A stretch of DNA of 64,000 nucleotides from an uncultured bacterium (GTDB lineage Bacteria; Actinomycetota; Acidimicrobiia; Acidimicrobiales; VFJN01), in assembly GCA_963717085.1 (NCBI GenBank), contig CAVQVM010000022.1:92620-156619 (forward strand). Direction: 5' to 3'. The notes beneath the pieces were generated by a model. It saw nothing but the letters and a program-made list of their open reading frames with translations. It was not told the DNA's origin and ran no database searches. Position numbers and translations under genes: made by a program. This document shows positions 14,690 to 62,883 of this stretch, one piece after another. Every line of letters begins with the position of its first letter. Position 1 is the stretch's first letter.

Positions 14690-14789
14690 CTTGAGGACCA
14701 AGAGCGAGCGTCCGTCGAGGGTGACGGGGAAACAAGGAGAAAGCGAGCGTGGCTTGAGCGGCACGGCCGCAGGCCAAGAGCGGAGAGCA
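14690..14789. repeat. Degenerate copies of the GAGCGG / CCAAGAGCG repeat family (family C)
   Basis: CCAAGAGCGAGCGTCCGTCGAG and GAGCGGCACGGCCGCAGGCCAAGAGCGGAGAGCA resemble the unit at 17986-18034, including a GGCC-GCA-GGCC mini-hairpin. Confidence 0.4.
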
Positions 14790-17346: not shown

Positions 17347-17895
17347 ATGGCTTCGCCGTCGCTACCCGGCGCCGACTTCCGCCACCACACGCTGGTCGTG
17401 CTGGTGGAGAACAAGGCCGGCGTGCTGGCCCGGGTCTCGGGGCTGTTCGCCCGCCGGGGCTACAACATCTACTCGCTGGCGGTGGCGCCCACCGACGACG
17501 AACGCTTCAGCCGCATCACGATCGTTGTGGACGTCGAGTCGGCGTCGCTCGAGCAGATCACCAAGCAGCTGTTCAAGCTCGTCAACGTCGTCAAGATCTC
17601 TGAGCTCGACCCCCGCGACGCGGTCGAGCGGGAGCTGATGCTCGCCACGGTGCGGGCCGACGCCACCGGGCGCAGCCAGGTCATCGAGCTGGTGGGGCTG
17701 TTCGACGGGCGCATCGTCGACGTTGGCCACGACGAGCTGACGGTGAGCCTCGATGGCGAGCCCGGCCGTCTCGACGACCTCGAGGACCTGCTGCGCCCGC
17801 ATGGGATCGTCGAGCTCCAGCGGACCGGACGCGTGGCGCTGCCCAAGCTCGAGCACCTCGCACCCAACCTGCGCCCGGTGCGCCGCACCGCATGA
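17347..17895 (+). CDS. ilvN: Acetolactate synthase small (regulatory) subunit
   Basis: ACT domain HTLVVLVENKAGVLARVSGLFARRGYNIYSLAV. The ATG abuts the ilvB TAA. Confidence 0.95.
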   Translation: MASPSLPGADFRHHTLVVLVENKAGVLARVSGLFARRGYNIYSLAVAPTDDERFSRITIVVDVESASLEQITKQLFKLVNVVKISELDPRDAVERELMLATVRADATGRSQVIELVGLFDGRIVDVGHDELTVSLDGEPGRLDDLEDLLRPHGIVELQRTGRVALPKLEHLAPNLRPVRRTA

Positions 17896-17918
17896 GCCCG
17901 ACCGTACGGGAGGGCCCG

Positions 17919-18116
17919 GCCCGAGCGGCCGTGGAGCGGGAAGCATGCGTCGAAGCCCGAGCGGCCGTGGAGCGGGAAGCATGCGTCGAAGCCCGAGCGG
18001 CCCGGCGCGAAGCGCCAAGAGCGGGAAGCATGCGTCGAAGCCCGAGCGGCCGTGGAGCGGGAAGCATGCGTCGAAGCCCGAGCGGCCCGGCGCGAAGCGC
18101 CAAGAGAGCGGGAAGC
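17919..18116. repeat. Tandem array of 36-nt and 49-nt units (a-a-b-a-b') in the ilvN-ilvC spacer (family C)
   Basis: Unit a: GCCCGAGCGGCCGTGGAGCGGGAAGCATGCGTCGAA. Unit b: GCCCGAGCGGCCCGGCGCGAAGCGCCAAGAGCGGGAAGCATGCGTCGAA. Copies are near-identical. Confidence 0.9.
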
Positions 18117-18153
18117 AACTGATCGAGCACCCACCTGAGAGAGGAACTCCCCA

Positions 18154-19182
18154 ATGGCCAACGTCTACTACGAGAAGGACGCCGACCGGTCGCTGATCGC
18201 GGACCGCAGGGTGGCGGTGATCGGCTACGGCTCGCAGGGCCACGCCCACGCCCTCAACCTCAAGGATTCGGGTATCGACGTGCGCGTCGGCCTGCGCGAC
18301 GGCTCGTCATCGAGGGCCAAGGCCGAGGCGGCCGGGCTCACGGTCCGCTCGATCGCCGACGCCGTGGCCGAGTCCGACCTGGTGATGCTCCTCGGCCCCG
18401 ACACCGAGCACAAGGCGATCTTCTCCGAGCACATCGCGCCGCACCTCGCGGACGGCGACGCTCTGTTCGTGGCCCACGGGTTCAGCGTGCGCTTCGGCCA
18501 GGTGGAGGCGCCGTCGGGCGTCGACGTCGCCCTGGTCGCCCCCAAGGGCCCCGGCCACCTGGTACGCCGCACCTACACCGAGGGCGGCGGCGTGCCCTGC
18601 CTGATCGCCGTCGCCCAGGACGCGTCCGGCCATGCCCACGGCCTCGCGTTGGCCTACGCCGACGCCATCGGCGGCGCGCGTGCCGGCGTGCTCGAGACGA
18701 CGTTCGAGGAGGAGACCGAGACCGACCTGTTCGGCGAGCAGGTCGTGCTGTGCGGCGGGCTCACCGCCCTCGTGCAGGCGGGCTTCGAGACGCTGGTCGA
18801 GGCCGGGTACCAGCCCGAGTCCGCCTACTTCGAGTGCCTCCACGAGCTGAAGCTCATCGTCGACCTCATGTACGAGCAGGGCATCGCCGGCATGCGCTAC
18901 TCGGTGAGTGACACGGCCGAGTACGGCGACCTGACCCGCGGCCCCCGGGTGATCAACGATGCCGTACGCGCCGAGATGCGCGCCATCCTCGACGAGATCC
19001 AAACGGGCCGCTTCGCCGACGAGTGGATCGCCGAGTCCGAGTCGGGCAGGCCCAACTTCTCGGCGCTGCGCCAGGCCGGCCGGGACCACCCGATCGAGAA
19101 GGTGGGTGCCGAGCTGCGGGCGATGATGCCCTGGATCTCGGCGGGCAGGCAGCGGGTCGAGGACGCGTCGGGCGGCGCCTGA
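18154..19182 (+). CDS. ilvC: Ketol-acid reductoisomerase
   Basis: [26 protein letters not shown] motif; 342 aa; RBS GAGAGGA upstream. Confidence 0.95.
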
Positions 19183-20750: not shown

Positions 20751-20892
20751 GTTCCGTCGTCCGGATGCGACGGCTTGCGGCGCTTCGGAACGGCGGTTGG
20801 TGTTGGACGGGGATGGACGCCGTTCCGGCGTCCGGATGCGACGGTTGGCGGTGTTTCGGAACGCAGGTTCGTGGTGGCCGGGCCCGGTCGGG
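20751..20892. repeat. Two tandem ~71-bp units (family D)
   Basis: Unit 1 at 20751 (GTTCCGTCGTCCGGATGCGACGGCTTGCGGCGCTTCGGAACG...). Unit 2 at 20822 (GTTCCGGCGTCCGGATGCGACGGTTGGCGGTGTTTCGGAACG...). Each is bracketed by GTTCCG...CGGAAC. Confidence 0.8.
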
Positions 20893-20893
20893 C

Positions 20894-22750
20894 TCACATC
20901 GTTTCGACGAAGCTGACCTCGCCCTCGCCCCGCAGCACGTTCTTGAGCAGCTTGCCGGAGGCGTTGCGGGGCAGCGGCTCGCGGCGCAGCTCCACGTGGG
21001 CTGGCACTTTGAAGTCGGCCAGCTCGGCGGCGACCCAGCGGCGCACGTGGTCGGCGGTCAGGGCCTCGCCCTCGGCACCAGGCTCCACCTGCACGACGGC
21101 CTTGACCTCCTCGCCCAGCTCGGCGTGCGCCACGCCGATGACCGCGGCGTCGGCGATGGCCGGGTGGTCGACGAGCCGGTTCTCGATCTCGACGCAGTAG
21201 ATGTTTTCGCCGCCCCGGATGATCATGTCCTTCTTGCGGTCGGTGATGGTCAGGTATCCCTCGTCGTCCAGATGGCCGATGTCCCCGGTGTGGAGGAACC
21301 CGTCGCCGTCGATGGCCTCGGCGGTCGCCTCGGGCTTGTTCCAGTACCCCTTCATGAGGATCGGGCCGCGGACGCACACCTCTCCGGTCTCGTCCGCACC
21401 CAACACCTGGCCGGCGGCGTCCATGATGCGCAGCTCCACCGTCGGCACAGGGGGGCCCACCGAGTGCGGTTTGCGCTTGGCGTCGGAACCGCTGATGACC
21501 GTCGCCACCGACGACGTCTCGGTGAGCCCGTACGCGTTGGAGGTCGAACGCACGTTGGGGAACGTCTCGGCCACCTTGCGCTGCAGCTCGTCGGCCGACG
21601 GCGAGCCACCGAACGCCACCGTCGTGACGCTGGACGTGTCGTAGTCCTGGCGGGCCGGGTGCTCGCACACCCGCCACACCATCGTGGGCACCGTGGCCCA
21701 CACCGTGACCTGGTTGGCGTCAATGAGGCGCAGCACCTGGACGGGGTCGAACCGGCCCTCGGGGATCACGAGCCTGACGCCCGCCAGCAGGCCGACGACC
21801 AGGTTGGAGTGGCAGCCCGACACGTGGAACAGCGGCGAGGTCAGCAGCGACACCGTCGGCGCGGCATTCGGCCTGTCTCCCGCTCTTGGCGCCTCCGGCG
21901 CCGGGCCGCTCGGGCTTCGACGCGCGTTCTCCGCTCTACGGCCGCTCGGGCCACGGCCTCGCTCATTCGCTCGGCCCCTGGTCGACGCCAGCGCCGATCC
22001 GGCCTCGGGGTTGGCTATCACCCCCGCCATCGTGGAGAACAGCGTGTTCTGCAGGTTGGCGATCATTGAGCGGTGCGTGGATATCGCCCCCTTGGGCTTC
22101 CCGGTGGTGCCTGACGTGTAGAAGATGACGGCCGCGTCGTCCTCCGCGATGGGCGCATCCGGGAAGTCGTCGGAGGGCTCCACGCCCAGGTCGTCGAAGC
22201 GTTGCAGCTTCACGCCCGACGCCGCCGCCACGGGGAAGTCGTCGGGGCCGGCATCGATCAGCAGCACCTGGGTGAGGTCCGGCGCCTCGGCCAGCCGGTC
22301 CGCGACGCGCTCGAACCGCTTGGCGTCGGCGACCAGCACCTTCGCCCCCGAATCCTGCAGGCCGTAGAGGATCTCGTCGGCCTTCCACCAGCCGTTGAGC
22401 CCCACGAGGATGGCACCCATCGACACCGTGGCCCAGAAGGTGAGGCACCATTCCGGGTTGTTCTGGCTGAGGACCGCTACCCGGTCGCCGGGCCCGATGC
22501 CGCAGCGGTCGGCGAGGGCGCGGGCCAGCCCGTTGGTCTGTTCGACGAAGCCCCGGAAGCCGTCGGTGCGGTCGCCATAGACGAGGAACGTGTCGTCTCC
22601 CCGACTGATGGCGGCCTCGGGGATCGCCCGCAGCGTCCTCATGCGGTCCTTGTAGACCTGCATGGGACGGCCCAGCACCTCCTCGGTGACGACCTCGAAC
22701 GGTCCTCCCGGCCCCGTGAGCTGGGCTCTGACCTCGGCCAGGTTCGGCAT
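20894..22750 (-). CDS. Acyl-CoA synthetase (AMP-forming, FadD-like) carrying an in-frame repeat-derived insert
   Basis: AMP-binding motifs IFYTSGTTGKPKGA and GDIGHLDDEGYLTITDRKKDMIIRGGENI. A low-complexity block ...STRGRANERGRGPSGRRAENARRSPSGPAPEAPRAGDR... is encoded by a family C repeat. Confidence 0.85.
   Translation of the reverse strand: MPNLAEVRAQLTGPGGPFEVVTEEVLGRPMQVYKDRMRTLRAIPEAAISRGDDTFLVYGDRTDGFRGFVEQTNGLARALADRCGIGPGDRVAVLSQNNPEWCLTFWATVSMGAILVGLNGWWKADEILYGLQDSGAKVLVADAKRFERVADRLAEAPDLTQVLLIDAGPDDFPVAAASGVKLQRFDDLGVEPSDDFPDAPIAEDDAAVIFYTSGTTGKPKGAISTHRSMIANLQNTLFSTMAGVIANPEAGSALASTRGRANERGRGPSGRRAENARRSPSGPAPEAPRAGDRPNAAPTVSLLTSPLFHVSGCHSNLVVGLLAGVRLVIPEGRFDPVQVLRLIDANQVTVWATVPTMVWRVCEHPARQDYDTSSVTTVAFGGSPSADELQRKVAETFPNVRSTSNAYGLTETSSVATVISGSDAKRKPHSVGPPVPTVELRIMDAAGQVLGADETGEVCVRGPILMKGYWNKPEATAEAIDGDGFLHTGDIGHLDDEGYLTITDRKKDMIIRGGENIYCVEIENRLVDHPAIADAAVIGVAHAELGEEVKAVVQVEPGAEGEALTADHVRRWVAAELADFKVPAHVELRREPLPRNASGKLLKNVLRGEGEVSFVETM
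21874..21977 (-). repeat. Family C repeat (a+b unit) embedded in-frame in the acyl-CoA synthetase gene
   Basis: The reverse complement of 21874-21951 reads GCCCGAGCGGCCGTAGAGCGGAGAACGCGCGTCGAAGCCCGAGCGGCCCGGCGCCGGAGGCGCCAAGAGCGGGAGACA. This is nearly collinear with 17955-18034. Confidence 0.8.
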
Positions 22751-27840: not shown

Positions 27841-29937
27841 ATGACGTCGTACGGCTCGTGGACCACCCCCATCACGTCGGAGCTCGTCGTCCGTGCGGCG
27901 GCGGTGCTCGGCGCCGTCGCGGTCGACGGCGACAGCGTCTGGTGGTCAGAGCTCCGCCCCGAGGAGGGGGGGCGCACGCAGGTCGTCCACAAGCTCGGCG
28001 ACGGCCCTGCCGTGGACCTGCTGCCCGCCGGGTTCAACGCCCGCACCGCCGTCCACGAGTACGGCGGCGGGGCGTGGTGGGTGCGGGGTCACAGCCTGTG
28101 GTTCGCCAACTGGGAGGACCAGCGCCTGTATCGCCTGACCGGGCGGGCGATGCCCGTTCCGGTGGTGGCCGAGCCCGACGCACCGCGAGGAGATCGCTGG
28201 GCCGACGGCGAGGTGGACGCGTCGGGTCGGTGGATCGTCGTCGTGCGCGAGCACCACGCCGGGGCGAGCGCGGCCGAGGTGGTCAACGAGCTGGTGGTGG
28301 TCGACGGCAACGGCGAGCTCGAGCCCCGTGCGCTGGTCAGCGGGCCCGACTTCGTCTCCAACTCCCGGCTCTCGCCCGACGGCGCCCGGCTGTGCTGGCT
28401 GCAGTGGAGCCACCCGGACATGCCCTGGGACGGCACCGAGCTGATGGTGGCGTCGGTCGAGTGGACCGCCACCGGCCCGCGGCTCGACAGCCCGGTGGTG
28501 GTGGCCGGGCGGCCCCACCGTGCCCCGGGCGGGACGGGCGGCGGCGAATCGGTGTTCCAGCCCCGATGGCACCCGGACGGATCGCTGTGGTTCGTTTCCG
28601 ACCGCACGGGCTGGGGCAACCTCTACCGCTGGGTCCCGGATGAGGCTGGCGGCGAGGTCGAGCCCCGGGTCCAGATGGAGGCGGAGATCGGCGCGCCTCA
28701 GTGGGTGTTCGGCCAGTCGCGCTACGCGTTCCTGGACGACGGGCGGGTCGTGTTCGCCTACCAGAGCGACGGGCTGGACCACCTGGCCGTGGAGGCGCCC
28801 AACGGTCCTGAGGCCGCGCCGGCAGGCGAGGCCGGGGCCCGAGCGGCCCGCAGCGAAGCTGCAAGAGCGGGACACGCGGCGCGCCCAGCCGGCGACCTCG
28901 ACGTGCCGTACACGGCGATCGCCTCGGTGGAGGCGGTGGGGGACGGTGTGGTGTTCATCGGGGCTTCGGCGGTAGCCGAGCCCGCCGTGGTGCGCGTGCC
29001 GCTGCTGCCGGCGGGCGACGAGCCCGGTGGGGCCAGGGCCGGAGCACCCGAGATCATTCGCCCTCCCCGCGACCTGGGCCTGGACCCGTCCTGGTTCTCC
29101 GTGCCCGAGGCCATTGACTTCCCCACCAGCGGCGGTCGCACCGCTCACGCGCTGTTCTATCCCCCGACCAACCCGGACGCCGCCGGGCGTGAAGCAGGCG
29201 GCGACCGGCCGCCGCTACTCGTCTTCATCCACGGCGGTCCGACGGGGGCAGCCAGGCCGATGCTCCAGCTCGGCATCCAGTACTGGACCAGCCGCGGCTT
29301 CGCGGTCGTCGACGTCAACTACGGCGGCTCGAGCGGTTACGGCCGCGAGTACCTTCGCCAGCTCGACGACAACTGGGGCATCATCGATCTCGACGACTGC
29401 GTGGCCGCGGCCCGGTGGCTGGCCGACCAGGGCCGGGTCGACCCCGACCGGCTGGCGATCCGCGGGGGCTCGGCCGGTGGCTACACGACCCTGGCGGCCC
29501 TGGCGTTCCGCGACACGTTCGCCGCGGGCGCCAGCCACTTCGGGGTCGCCGACCTCGAGGCCCTGGCAACCGAGACCCACAAGTTCGAGAGCCGCTACCT
29601 CGACGGCCTGATCGGGCCGTACCCGGAGCGGCGCGACCTGTACGTGGAGCGCTCGCCGATCCACCACGTCGAGGGGATCGACCGCCCGCTCATCGTGCTC
29701 CAGGGCCTGGAGGACGAGGTCGTGCCGCCCAACCAGGCCGAGATGATCGTCGACGCCCTGCGCCGCAAGGGCGTGCCGGTCGCCTACCTGACCTTCGAGG
29801 GCGAGCAACACGGGTTCCGCCAAGCGGCCAACATCCGCCGGGCGCTCGACGCCGAGCTGTCGTTCTACGGCCAGGTCTTCGGCTTCGAGCCACCCGAGGA
29901 CGAGGGCATCGAGCCCGTCACCGTCGAGAACCTCTAG
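27841..29937 (+). CDS. S9-family serine peptidase (prolyl oligopeptidase / acylaminoacyl-peptidase-like)
   Basis: N-terminal propeller-like region. C-terminal alpha/beta hydrolase with GGSAGGY nucleophile elbow, then LQGLEDEVVP and EGEQHGF (Asp/His region). Confidence 0.8.
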   Translation: MTSYGSWTTPITSELVVRAAAVLGAVAVDGDSVWWSELRPEEGGRTQVVHKLGDGPAVDLLPAGFNARTAVHEYGGGAWWVRGHSLWFANWEDQRLYRLTGRAMPVPVVAEPDAPRGDRWADGEVDASGRWIVVVREHHAGASAAEVVNELVVVDGNGELEPRALVSGPDFVSNSRLSPDGARLCWLQWSHPDMPWDGTELMVASVEWTATGPRLDSPVVVAGRPHRAPGGTGGGESVFQPRWHPDGSLWFVSDRTGWGNLYRWVPDEAGGEVEPRVQMEAEIGAPQWVFGQSRYAFLDDGRVVFAYQSDGLDHLAVEAPNGPEAAPAGEAGARAARSEAARAGHAARPAGDLDVPYTAIASVEAVGDGVVFIGASAVAEPAVVRVPLLPAGDEPGGARAGAPEIIRPPRDLGLDPSWFSVPEAIDFPTSGGRTAHALFYPPTNPDAAGREAGGDRPPLLVFIHGGPTGAARPMLQLGIQYWTSRGFAVVDVNYGGSSGYGREYLRQLDDNWGIIDLDDCVAAARWLADQGRVDPDRLAIRGGSAGGYTTLAALAFRDTFAAGASHFGVADLEALATETHKFESRYLDGLIGPYPERRDLYVERSPIHHVEGIDRPLIVLQGLEDEVVPPNQAEMIVDALRRKGVPVAYLTFEGEQHGFRQAANIRRALDAELSFYGQVFGFEPPEDEGIEPVTVENL
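28837..28874 (+). repeat. Family C b-type unit embedded in-frame in the S9 peptidase gene
   Basis: GCCCGAGCGGCCCGCAGCGAAGCTGCAAGAGCGGGACA versus the array unit GCCCGAGCGGCCCGGCGCGAAGCGCCAAGAGCGGGAAG. The hairpin stem is changed by paired substitutions. Confidence 0.65.
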
Positions 29938-32151: not shown

Positions 32152-32691
32152 TCAGCTCGTGCCGCCGCTGTCGCCGTCGCTGCCGGGATCGCTGGACGGC
32201 GCCGGCGCCTTCTTGGCCGAGGGGGCCTTCTTGGTCCCCGCCTTCTTGGCCGGCGCCTTCTTTGCCGAGGCGGATGGCGGTGCCTTGCGGGCCGCGGTCT
32301 TCTTGGCCGGCGCCTTCTTGGCTGGCGCCTTGTCCGCGGCCACCTTCTTCGCCGGCGCCTTTGCCGGCGTTGCCTTCGCCGTCGTCGCGTTGGTTGCCGG
32401 TGCCTTTGTCGTCGCGGCAGTGGCGGTCGCCGTCGTAGAGGTCGCCGCGGTGGCTGCCGGCGCCTTGGGCGCCCGGGACTCCGTCGCGACGGGCGACGTC
32501 GCAGGCTCGGACTCGGATGATGATCCAGGGCGGCGCGGCGCGGGCTCAGGCGTCGACCGCTGCTGCCGCATGAACCGGAGCAGCGCCTGGACCGCGGCCC
32601 CGAGCAGTACCACCAGACCCACGCGGAACAGTCGGCGACTCACGGCTCCCGAGGCTAACCCCTCGGCGACCCCCCCTCGACTGAACCACAC
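32152..32691 (-). CDS. Membrane-anchored protein with a histone-H1/HupB-tail-like Ala/Lys/Pro repeat region
   Basis: N-terminal hydrophobic helix LFRVGLVVLLGAAVQALL, then many (P)AKKA / KAPAKK repeats. The opposite-strand ORF 32159..32857 is an Ala/Phe/Gly artefact. Confidence 0.5.
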   Translation of the reverse strand: MWFSRGGVAEGLASGAVSRRLFRVGLVVLLGAAVQALLRFMRQQRSTPEPAPRRPGSSSESEPATSPVATESRAPKAPAATAATSTTATATAATTKAPATNATTAKATPAKAPAKKVAADKAPAKKAPAKKTAARKAPPSASAKKAPAKKAGTKKAPSAKKAPAPSSDPGSDGDSGGTS

Positions 32692-62487: not shown

Positions 62488-62883
62488 TTGGAGGTTGTGG
62501 AGATGTGCGAGCAGGTCCCGGCTCTGCTGACCGTCGAAGAGGCGGCTGTCCTGCTCCGCGTCGGACGCACGAAGGCGTACGCAATGACGCAGGAGTGGCG
62601 CGCGTCCGGTGCGCGCTCCGGCCTGCCCGTCGTCGACTTCGGCAACGTGCTGCGCGTGCCGAGGCAAGCGCTGGAGGAGCTGCTGGGTGTCGACCTGACA
62701 ACCGTCGGGGAGGTCCAAGCACAGGTGGCCCGAGCGCCCGCCGTAGAGCGCGCTGGCGCCGCTGCTGCCGACGGGAGCGCCCGAGGCGTTCAGGACTCGG
62801 CCCCAGTGGCCGCTTCGGTGGCGAAGCACAAGAGGGGGGCGCGGCGCGTTCCCCCGGCGCAGGCAGCGCTGTTCGACGCATGA
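62488..62883 (+). CDS. Excisionase-family / HTH_17 DNA-binding protein
   Basis: LLTVEEAAVLLRVGRTKAYAMTQEW...VVDFGNVLRVPRQALEELL. The start may be Met-6 (62503). Confidence 0.65.
   Translation: MEVVEMCEQVPALLTVEEAAVLLRVGRTKAYAMTQEWRASGARSGLPVVDFGNVLRVPRQALEELLGVDLTTVGEVQAQVARAPAVERAGAAAADGSARGVQDSAPVAASVAKHKRGARRVPPAQAALFDA

Follow-up and report, generated by a model that had tools for sequence, protein, structure and literature searches.

Rickettsia palindromic elements (RPEs) are the paradigm of selfish DNA within protein-coding genes, a phenomenon first described in Rickettsia (PMC10969869). The repeat family described here, found in Acidimicrobiia, resembles them in that short palindromic interspersed repeats lie in-frame in unrelated housekeeping genes as well as between genes, and in that the host genes appear to remain functional and the protein fold seems to accommodate the insertions. 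All five features of an in-frame intragenic (RPE-like) repeat were found: occurrence at several loci, in-frame copies that are absent from orthologues, a host gene judged functional from its sequence, a predicted loop location, and recurrence. Unlike RPEs, the Acidimicrobiia family belongs to the Actinomycetota, is extremely GC-rich and can be likened to RPEs by behaviour rather than by sequence; it is built of modular 30–50-nt units whose number varies VNTR-like inside an ORF, it uses all three reading frames with no conserved peptide, and most copies are intergenic, roughly 5–10% of those sampled being intragenic as against nearly half reported for RPEs.

REP and REPIN elements are mobilised by RAYT (IS200/IS605-like Y1) transposases. 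Like them, the Acidimicrobiia repeats are short, GC-rich, imperfect palindromes, mostly extragenic and often placed after stop codons or between cistrons, with a strand bias and without target-site duplications; however, their units stand in direct tandem rather than as inverted doublets, their core is conserved across many genera where REPs are usually species-specific, and they have in-frame intragenic copies, which are atypical for REPs. Hairpins and the lack of target-site duplications are shared with IS200/IS605-type elements as well; no common target is seen at three junctions. The mycobacterial interspersed repetitive units (MIRU-VNTR), likewise actinobacterial, offer a parallel in layout, with direct tandem units of 40–100 bp between operon genes, a strain-polymorphic copy number and small ORFs through the units; this layout is found in the ilvN-ilvC array (5/2/0 units) and in a 36-nt loss inside the synthetase gene described below, whereas hairpin content, the conserved core, dispersal as arm plus unit and in-frame intragenic copies set the family apart. 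Intragenic ERIC, Correia and cyanobacterial MITEs, which give rise to in-frame fusions, are likewise non-autonomous repeats that sometimes lie inside ORFs without disruption (PMC10969869), but they have clear TIRs and TSDs, neither of which is seen at three Acidimicrobiia filled/empty pairs.

An in-frame repeat insertion in an acyl-CoA synthetase gene

The stretch of DNA analysed (the window, 64,000 nt) encodes on its minus strand, at 20894..22750, a FadD/CasG-like class I adenylate-forming acyl-CoA synthetase of 618 aa, assigned from the ORF and its Pfam matches. Both domains, PF00501 and PF13193, are intact; the top NCBIfam match is steroid-24-oyl-CoA synthetase, with a score under the family cutoff. 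An earlier note had claimed that this gene carries, in-frame, a repeat element collinear with the a+b unit of an array between ilvN and ilvC, and sequence, similarity search and the open ORF bear this out. The 12-mer core GCCCGAGCGGCC occurs eight times in the window against 0.17 expected: five times in the ilvN-ilvC intercistronic array (17905..18115, plus strand; five units in the order a a b a b), twice in the synthetase gene and once at 28837. The similarity test was kept non-circular by taking the query from the array only and masking the array in the target; the a+b composite (17955-18039) then matched 21951-21878 on the minus strand at 87.8% across 74 nt and with a single gap (E = 4e-15 to 1e-21). 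By Smith-Waterman the match scores 106, the codon-shuffled gene 23 ± 3 (maximum 42), and the similarity thus survives the alignment statistics under which it might have disappeared.

Alignment at the DNA level with the empty synthetase alleles L003, L122 and L123 shows that the block is larger than the 21874-21977 first proposed: the insert spans 21866..21979 (minus strand), 114 nt or 38 codons (R258-N295), with codon boundaries at both ends. The empty site reads GTCGAGC/GGCGCGCC and the filled one GTCGACC/AGGGGCC...CCGAAT/GCCGCGCC, slashes marking the junctions. In coding direction, the insert begins with the 28-nt 5' arm (21952..21979), which matches the canonical family 5' terminus AGAGGCCGAGC...GCGAGGCCGTG and holds hairpin 1 (GGCCGAGCG-aatg-AGCGAGGCC, at about 21955-21976), whose stem includes a tandem G.A and covaries across loci. 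There follow a 36-nt “a” unit (21916..21951), GCCCGAGCGGCC-GTA-GAGCGGAGAACGCGCGTCGAA, and a “b” unit with tail (21866..21915) composed of GCCCGAGCGGCC, hairpin 2, AAGAGCGGGA and then gacaggccgaat; hairpin 2 (GGCGCC-GGA-GGCGCC, 21888-21902) has a 6-bp stem and lies within the b unit. The same arm+a+b composite is present at unrelated intergenic loci, and the subfamily matched by the arm and 6-bp hairpin of the insert is found at intergenic loci such as L131, L136, L145, L146 and L166.

The ORF is open throughout, with no stop within the repeat block, and Pfam AMP-binding matches flank the block on either side, in agreement with the repeat-derived loop of about 40 residues that had been placed between two conserved AMP-binding regions. 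The 38 added residues are Arg/Gly/Pro/Ala-rich and strongly hydrophilic; sense-frame repeat peptides have a GRAVY of −1.5 to −1.9, and antisense peptides are not hydrophilic. A usable AF2 model was obtained from an alignment of 104 sequences (20 close orthologues alone gave a pLDDT of 42) and has the ANL fold, with a TM of up to 0.81. In this model residues 255-295 form a coil with a pLDDT of about 30 between H226-246 and E300-303, the sole long low-pLDDT coil of an otherwise confident structure, placed after the post-P-loop helix and before the FHVSG (A4) strand; the insert lies some 5 residues upstream of that strand, whose motif borders the acyl pocket in ANL enzymes. The equivalent connection in FadD5 (8r2q) is about 2 residues long. 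The insert is therefore predicted to be a disordered, fold-compatible loop excursion, in a region that is low-confidence by nature.

The earlier note had left a choice between an insertion tolerated or exapted and a dead gene with its frame preserved by chance. Synthetase dN/dS is 0.15-0.19 even in filled-filled allele pairs; purifying selection has been maintained, and on this sequence evidence the gene is functional and the insert tolerated, so that the second branch falls away.

Filled and empty alleles

Loop length is bimodal across the 104 homologues, with 10-14 residues in 100 of them and 39 or 51 in the remaining four, the window having 51. The insert is lineage-specific, with clean borders in the DNA alignments, and the notion of an ordinary variable loop carried by orthologues at large does not hold, as about 100 of them are without it. 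Presence and absence also alternate among close relatives. The nearest relative of the window synthetase (dS 0.04) is insert-free, as are L003, L122 and L123, and the closest relative of every filled allele is an empty one; the empty L122 has as its nearest relative L121, which is filled and belongs to the same sublineage. Insert-bearing alleles were found in four independent assemblies. One of them, L001 (P0002, a cluster of 21 member sequences), has exactly one 36-nt unit fewer, the a unit, and is 12 residues shorter. In a more distant synthetase orthologue, this loop holds another member of the family, read in a different frame.

The window and L121 inserts differ at 5 of 113 nt, while the host genes stand at dS 0.23; four of the five differences are non-synonymous, and they fall outside the cores and hairpin 2. 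So low a divergence is harder to reconcile with a purely neutral passenger than with nucleotide-level constraint or recent transfer. A sliding-window search of the filled alleles detected neither a recombination tract nor SNPs common to their flanks, the sole shared change being in the adjacent codon, AGC to ACC. An origin of the empty alleles by seamless excision is disfavoured, as they keep the ancestral AGC codon that is changed in filled alleles. No target-site duplication was seen at the filled/empty junctions of the synthetase, the peptidase described below and ilvN-ilvC (3 loci), nor any target motif common to the three pairs (flanks ending ...TCGAGC, ...GGTCCT and ...GACCG).

An interspersed repeat family in Acidimicrobiia

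Two further members lie in the window. A second in-frame insertion, of 78 nt (26 aa, PEAAPAGEAGARAARSEAARAGHAARPA), occupies 28810..28887 (plus strand, borders ± 1-2 nt) in an S9 peptidase gene (27841-29937); it consists of the 5' arm and a b unit with the hairpin GCAGC-GAA-GCTGC, and is present in L122 and absent from L003. A diverged intergenic member at 14690..14789 (plus strand), with core GCTTGAGCGGCA, hairpin GGCC-GCA-GGCC and GAGCGGAGAGCA, runs right up to the ATG of the next gene (14790), and in L003 the orthologous position is likewise occupied by a copy. The ilvN-ilvC array, open in all six frames, has five units in the window, two in L123 and L151 and none in L003 and L122. The family counts four loci in the window, >117 in genomes (about 60 MAGs of Acidimicrobiia) and about 30 in metagenomes.

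The general unit plan begins with a 9-bp hairpin arm, GTG and GCCCGAGCGGCC; there follow a hairpin of 5-6 bp closed by a G-N-A loop, AA, GAGCGGGA and a tail, and the 36-nt hairpin-less a unit is an optional module. Both hairpins covary across genera, including G-C to A-U swaps and tandem G.A pairs; for hairpin 2, canonical pairs make up 92% against 65% in shuffles, a value reached by 0 of 1000 shuffles. Single repeat units show no folding stability beyond shuffles, and the structural evidence accordingly comes from covariation, not from folding energy. A long form of about 118 nt, in Ca. Aldehydirespirator, has the ends ggataggcgag...ctcgcctatcc and a fold z of −3.9; the window's subfamily has weak end complementarity and no long terminal inverted repeat. 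Hairpin loops are of the GNA/GNNA type, equally a mark of stable DNA mini-hairpins (PMC13037366, PMC3201870). With respect to genes, about 37 intergenic copies follow a stop codon on the same strand at a distance of ≤120 nt, whereas 11 show the opposite arrangement; the 5' ends of the family fall on stop codons, and a start codon often comes directly after the 3' end (GAGCGGGAAGCA).

Rfam 15 gave no match over 17-30 kb of the window (E ≤ 1) or at 10 representative loci (gathering score), miRNA and PYLIS hits being spurious, and nothing relevant was found in the literature on the motif or on Acidimicrobiia repeats. Judged from these comparisons, this appears to be a previously undescribed family of interspersed repeats, modular and hairpin-bearing, with a wide distribution in Acidimicrobiia.

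That intragenic insertions of this kind are rarely documented, as the earlier note put it, is fair in general; within this family they recur, in at least seven host genes. In-frame copies were found in at least six genes besides the synthetase (S9 peptidase, P-type ATPase, MurC, PriA, alpha/beta-hydrolase and HrpB-like helicase), all but the peptidase in related genomes outside the window. Intragenic calls were made by a two-flank test plus Pfam; the GC3 gene caller, which works on stop-to-stop ORFs, overcounts copies “inside” genes. L014 and L049 were dropped as not convincing. The element is in sense orientation in all seven intragenic hosts, and the copies together use three frames (ARAAR, PSG and PERP), more than one even within a single insert, so that no peptide is conserved. 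A phmmer search with the 33-aa peptide of the peptidase insert against 1.84 billion representatives gave 0 hits, a short low-complexity query of this kind having no power. Some intragenic hairpins have decayed (L001, L122).

Origin and maintenance of the insert

Given these observations, the insert is probably a tolerated passenger copy of a REP/MITE-like repeat family. The 114-nt arm+a+b composite would have inserted once, in sense orientation and at a codon boundary, into an already variable loop; because its length is a multiple of three and its frame stop-free, the enzyme would have gained 38 residues. Conservation lies in the nucleotide cores and hairpins and not in the peptide, since the DNA is read in different frames in other hosts. 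The 12-nt direct repeats may allow unit number to shift by slippage or unequal recombination, which would account for both the allele with the 36-nt deletion and the arrays of 5, 2 or 0 units, and the filled allele may have been kept as a polymorphism and moved onto different backgrounds by homologous recombination. Mobilisation would most likely have followed a single-strand, hairpin-recognising route, REP/RAYT-like or IS200/IS605-like, as suggested by the lack of target-site duplications and, in this subfamily, of a long TIR, the GNA/GNNA loops and the strand bias.

Several other explanations have to be set against this one. The array lies only 3.8 kb away, array and insert are built on a common plan of a and b units, and there is microhomology between the empty site (GCGTCGAGCGGC) and the unit junction GCGTCGAAGCCCGAGCGGC, as might be expected if the insert were a local copy templated from the array by template switching or gene conversion. 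This is nevertheless largely refuted and very improbable: the array, whose own 5' arm (TGAGCCCGACCG...) differs, is without the 28-nt arm and 6-bp hairpin of the insert, which (AGRGGCCGAGC...GCGAGGCC for the arm) match a subfamily of AGAGGCCGAGC type that other genomes carry at unrelated loci, and L122, whose nearest relative is the filled L121, has no ilvN-ilvC array. The insert thus belongs to the family of the array, as had been proposed, but to a sister subfamily, and the array is not its source. Less credible still is a pseudogene, an ordinary variable loop or a chance similarity; high-GC genomes do keep long stop-free frames by chance, and the array itself is open in every frame, but the low dN/dS, the two intact Pfam domains, a similarity with E about 1e-15 or lower and the bimodal loop length refute all of these.

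Exaptation, in which the Arg-rich loop is kept because it now serves the enzyme (for instance in substrate gating near the A4 motif, or in partner or membrane binding), draws on the proximity to the FHVSG strand, on the persistence of the filled allele on three haplotype backgrounds and on the fact that this loop was hit twice by independent insertions. We consider it improbable, as the nearest relatives and about 96% of orthologues do without the insert, L001 dispenses with 12 of its residues, most window-L121 differences alter the peptide, translation of this DNA uses different frames in other hosts, and the loop is predicted to be disordered. Somewhat better placed, though still unlikely, is a role in the mRNA, with the intragenic hairpins acting as exonuclease barriers, RNase sites, or ribosome pause or internal ribosome-binding modules: the covariation of both hairpins across genera, the uniform sense orientation, the bias towards positions past same-strand stops, the 3' ends at start codons and the sparing of cores and hairpin 2 between the window and L121 are all consistent with it. 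However, Rfam has no match, single units fold no better than shuffles, the loops equally fit DNA mini-hairpins, the hairpins in L001 and L122 have decayed, hydrophilic sense peptides could also explain the orientation, and most orthologues work without the insert.

Beyond a tolerated passenger, the family might be a structured nucleic-acid module conserved class-wide, with a dedicated putative trans-acting partner, and not just selfish DNA, which we regard as unlikely. This reading starts from the invariant GCCCGAGCGGCC...GAGCGGGA core with a covarying hairpin on either side and from the ends at stop and start codons. If true, insertion and unit-number change would time and again create disordered loops in housekeeping and essential enzymes (MurC, PriA, FadD-like, P-type ATPase), and inserts would diverge so little between lineages because selection acts on their nucleotide sequence.

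The tolerated passenger copy that we favour adds the free-living, high-GC Acidimicrobiia to Rickettsia and the few other lineages with in-frame repeat insertion in protein-coding genes. Filled/empty allele pairs at three or more loci, together with unit-number variants inside an ORF, make this a tractable system for asking how non-coding repeats give rise to disordered protein loops and how the repeats themselves move. Acidimicrobiia protein families can in practice be expected to show length heterogeneity and apparent “novel insertions”, and tandem arrays of the family may break assemblies.

A repeat-derived loop in the acyl-CoA synthetase

The repeat sequence that the earlier note quoted from an acyl-CoA synthetase gene is present, inside the ORF at 20894-22750 (-). 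The 618-aa product has the Pfam domains AMP-binding (PF00501) and AMP-binding_C (PF13193); its top NCBIfam match, a steroid-24-oyl-CoA synthetase model, scores under that model's cutoff. The 12-mer GCCCGAGCGGCC occurs in 8 copies in the 64-kb window versus 0.17 expected. In a non-circular test, a single composite of adjoining "a" and "b" units from the tandem ilvN-ilvC array was compared with the window, the array being masked; it matched a stretch of 74 nt, 21951-21878 (-), with 87.8% identity (E 4e-15 to 1e-21), and its Smith-Waterman score was 106 versus 23 ± 3 in the codon-shuffled synthetase gene. The similarity proposed by the note thus holds under proper alignment statistics.

A database search for orthologues returned 120 sequences (identity 73-93%), 104 of which were aligned and their loop measured between the invariant residues P248 and V300. 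This loop has 10-14 residues in 100/104, 39 in two (orthologue clusters P0002 and P0047) and 51 in two (the window and P0001); the segment is therefore lineage-specific, as had been suggested, and not an ordinary variable loop shared by orthologues. Comparison of the locus with DNA from six relatives (borders marked by slashes) gave GTCGAGC/GGCGCGCC for alleles without the insert ("empty") and GTCGACC/AGGGGCCGAGCG...GGCCGAAT/GCCGCGCC for the "filled" allele of the window. The simplest parse of these sequences is a 114-nt insertion at 21979-21866 (-) that would run from codon boundary to codon boundary (R258-N295), in frame as claimed. No target-site duplication is seen in the alignment of filled and empty DNA, and in 3/3 filled alleles the adjoining codon reads ACC in place of AGC. 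On the minus strand the insert comprises a 5' arm of 28 nt forming hairpin 1, an "a" unit of 36 nt, and a "b" unit with tail (50 nt) holding hairpin 2, GGCGCC-GGA-GGCGCC. The allele of locus L001 (P0002, a cluster of 21 member sequences) lacks exactly one 36-nt "a" unit. In L002 (P0047, 81% identity) the same loop is occupied by a different family member, arm plus "c" unit, which occurs also in L126 and L141; there the insert is translated in another frame than in the window (PWPERPAASRVTGQQRK).

Pairs of filled alleles have dN/dS of 0.15-0.19 (Nei-Gojobori, 576 shared codons), and other pairs are similar. The AF2 model built from the 104-sequence alignment (pLDDT 75.9, pTM 0.74) has the ANL fold and resembles solved adenylate-forming enzymes with TM up to 0.81. 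Residues 255-295, corresponding to the insert, are its sole long low-confidence coil, between helix 226-246 and strand 300-303; FadD5 (8r2q), the nearest homologue with a solved structure, has about 2 residues at the equivalent connection. Judged from sequence and model, the gene is not dead and its insert forms a loop, directly N-terminal to the strand with FHVSG (motif A4) and presumably near the acyl pocket. The spacer that directly follows the synthetase stop codon contains, at 20751-20882, an unrelated tandem repeat (71 bp x 1.9) bearing the internal inverted repeats GTTCCG...CGGAAC; this spacer is occupied by a Vgb_lyase-like gene in L003 and L121.

An undescribed repeat family with in-frame members

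Scanning one genome per species with the pattern GCCCGAGCGGCC-N(3-20)-GAGCGGGA gave at least 117 loci, almost all in Acidimicrobiia MAGs among the matches listed, with Ca. Aldehydirespirator, Ca. Poriferisodalis, Microthrixaceae and others as carriers. Matches in Gordonia, Novosphingobium, Caulobacterales and Stellaceae seem fortuitous. Copies that look genuine, having both the 5' arm and a hairpin GCCGC-GAA-GCGGC, were seen in MAGs assigned outside Actinomycetota, labelled Acidobacteria (L011) and Kiloniellales (L062), and reflect either binning contamination or horizontal spread. No Rfam family matches the element and its motif was not found in the searchable literature; the family is undescribed so far.

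The core spacer is mostly 16 or 18 nt and hairpin-forming. The 21 distinct 16-nt spacers have 92% canonical stem pairs versus 65% in column shuffles (0/1000 shuffles attain the observed value), with as many as four pair types per position; 18-nt spacers have six Watson-Crick pairs, or four and a tandem G.A/A.G, with G-C to A-T swaps in both directions. Their loops are G-N-A. The 5' arm forms another hairpin that covaries, of 9 bp and with mostly G-N-N-A loops. Such loops mark very stable DNA mini-hairpins (PMC13037366, PMC3201870), and would equally suit RNA. In Ca. Aldehydirespirator (L100, L034, L087, L098 and others) the core lies within a longer element of ~118 nt, which has terminal inverted repeats (ggataggcgag...ctcgcctatcc), folds into multiple stems (z = -3.9) and matches nothing in Rfam. 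Units also form pure tandem arrays, of six 43-nt units in L023 (OZ244866.1) and of hairpin-less 30-nt mini-units with a 4-nt spacer in L014, L112 and L115.

Roughly 5-10% of sampled copies are intragenic. A second in-frame copy in the window, at 28810-28887 (+) (78 nt, 26 aa), lies in an S9 prolyl-oligopeptidase-family gene (27841-29937); its peptide nearly matches PEAEPAGEAVARAARSEAARAG, inserted in a heavy-metal P-type ATPase of another MAG (L073). Outside the window, copies accepted on in-frame position, coding-signature flanks and Pfam confirmation lie in five more genes: this ATPase, MurC (L112, two 30-nt mini-units), PriA (L057), an alpha/beta-hydrolase (L129) and, at the same site with different composites, an HrpB-like helicase (L140 and L126). 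The core is translated as ARAAR, PSG or PERP depending on the host, and in two frames within the single insert of L129, so that conservation is of the DNA and not of a peptide. Orientation is sense in 7/7 host genes; peptides read from the sense strand are strongly hydrophilic (GRAVY -1.5 to -1.9) and antisense ones are not, which offers a simple selective filter for orientation. The phenomenon works as it does in Rickettsia palindromic elements (PMC10969869); new here are the phylum and the repeat family. Some features are shared with REP elements and MIRU-type VNTRs, whereas the target-site duplication of a MITE and the inverted doublet of a REPIN are lacking.

Insertion polymorphism and the origin of the insert

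Presence and absence among close relatives vary independently at the synthetase, peptidase and array loci. The synthetase insert is present in the window, L121 and L001 and missing from L123, L122 and L003; the peptidase insert is present in the window and L122 and missing from the syntenic contig L003; and the unit count of the array is 5 in the window, 2 in L123 and L151, and 0 in L003 and L122. The three filled synthetase alleles stem from a single insertion event, since their inserts have the same junctions, tail truncation and derived variants of the units, yet each is nearest to an empty one (dS 0.04, 0.10 and 0.06, versus 0.15-0.29 between filled alleles). The retained ancestral AGC codon speaks against empty alleles as excision products. 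The most economical history would be that homologous recombination has reshuffled an insertion polymorphism of some age; the flanks of the filled alleles show no recombination tract. Between the window and L121 the insert has only 5 differences in 113 nt, 4 of them non-synonymous and all outside the cores and hairpin 2. This is much less than the dS of 0.23 in the flanks and suggests constraint at the nucleotide level or a recent transfer.

The evidence best supports a tolerated passenger: a REP/MITE-like repeat would have entered a permissive loop of the synthetase, and its unit number would then have changed via slippage between 12-nt direct repeats. A single-strand mobilisation route that recognises hairpins is plausible, given the lack of a target-site duplication, the hairpins at the ends and the strand bias; neither a mobilising enzyme nor a target motif was found in this analysis. 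Action of the hairpins at the mRNA level is unlikely. The earlier note had left the choice between a tolerated or exapted insertion and a dead gene: toleration stands, exaptation of the Arg-rich loop is improbable, and a pseudogene, like chance similarity, is refuted by the dN/dS and alignment values. The note also treated the insert as a unit of the ilvN-ilvC array. The two are relatives, but local copying is most improbable, being contradicted by the insert's arm and hairpin type: the array is of a sister subfamily with another arm (TGAGCCCGACCG...), common to L132, L139, L148 and L149, and scanning metagenomes for the junction between units gave the exact synthetase composite, arm + a + b with 6-bp hairpin, at unrelated, mostly intergenic loci (L131, L136, L145, L146, L159 and L166).

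The ilvN-ilvC array and gene ends

All six frames are open across the array (17905-18115, +). Within its units, ATG-initiated small ORFs start at 18030 and 18066 and end at TGA 18120-18122; the ilvC start follows 31 nt further on, at 18154. This arrangement recalls the translational coupling proposed for MIRUs. A diverged intergenic member at 14690-14789 (+) has a 3' end, GAGCGGAGAGCA, that runs straight into ATG 14790, and many copies elsewhere stop 3-5 nt short of a start codon, so that the element may contribute the region for ribosome binding or overlap with it. Many sampled copies begin at the upstream gene's stop codon or end at the next gene's start codon. The 5' end coincides with the upstream stop at L040, L047, L054, L079, L090, L114, L145, L162 and others, and in the window at 17893-17905, with junctions of the forms cTAGaggc, cTGAgaggc, TAAgaggc and TGAgcccgaccg. 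Either the element brings a one-frame stop codon, so that its insertion truncates C-termini, or stop codons are its target.

A candidate decayed a-like copy, GTGGCCCGAGCGCCCGCCGTAGAGCGCG, with one core mismatch, lies at 62728-62760 (+) inside the C-terminal tail (...VARAPAVERAG...) of a small HTH/excisionase-like ORF (62488-62883). TRF also reports a 15-bp x 10.7 tandem repeat, GCCGGCGCCTTCTTG, at 32201-32361.
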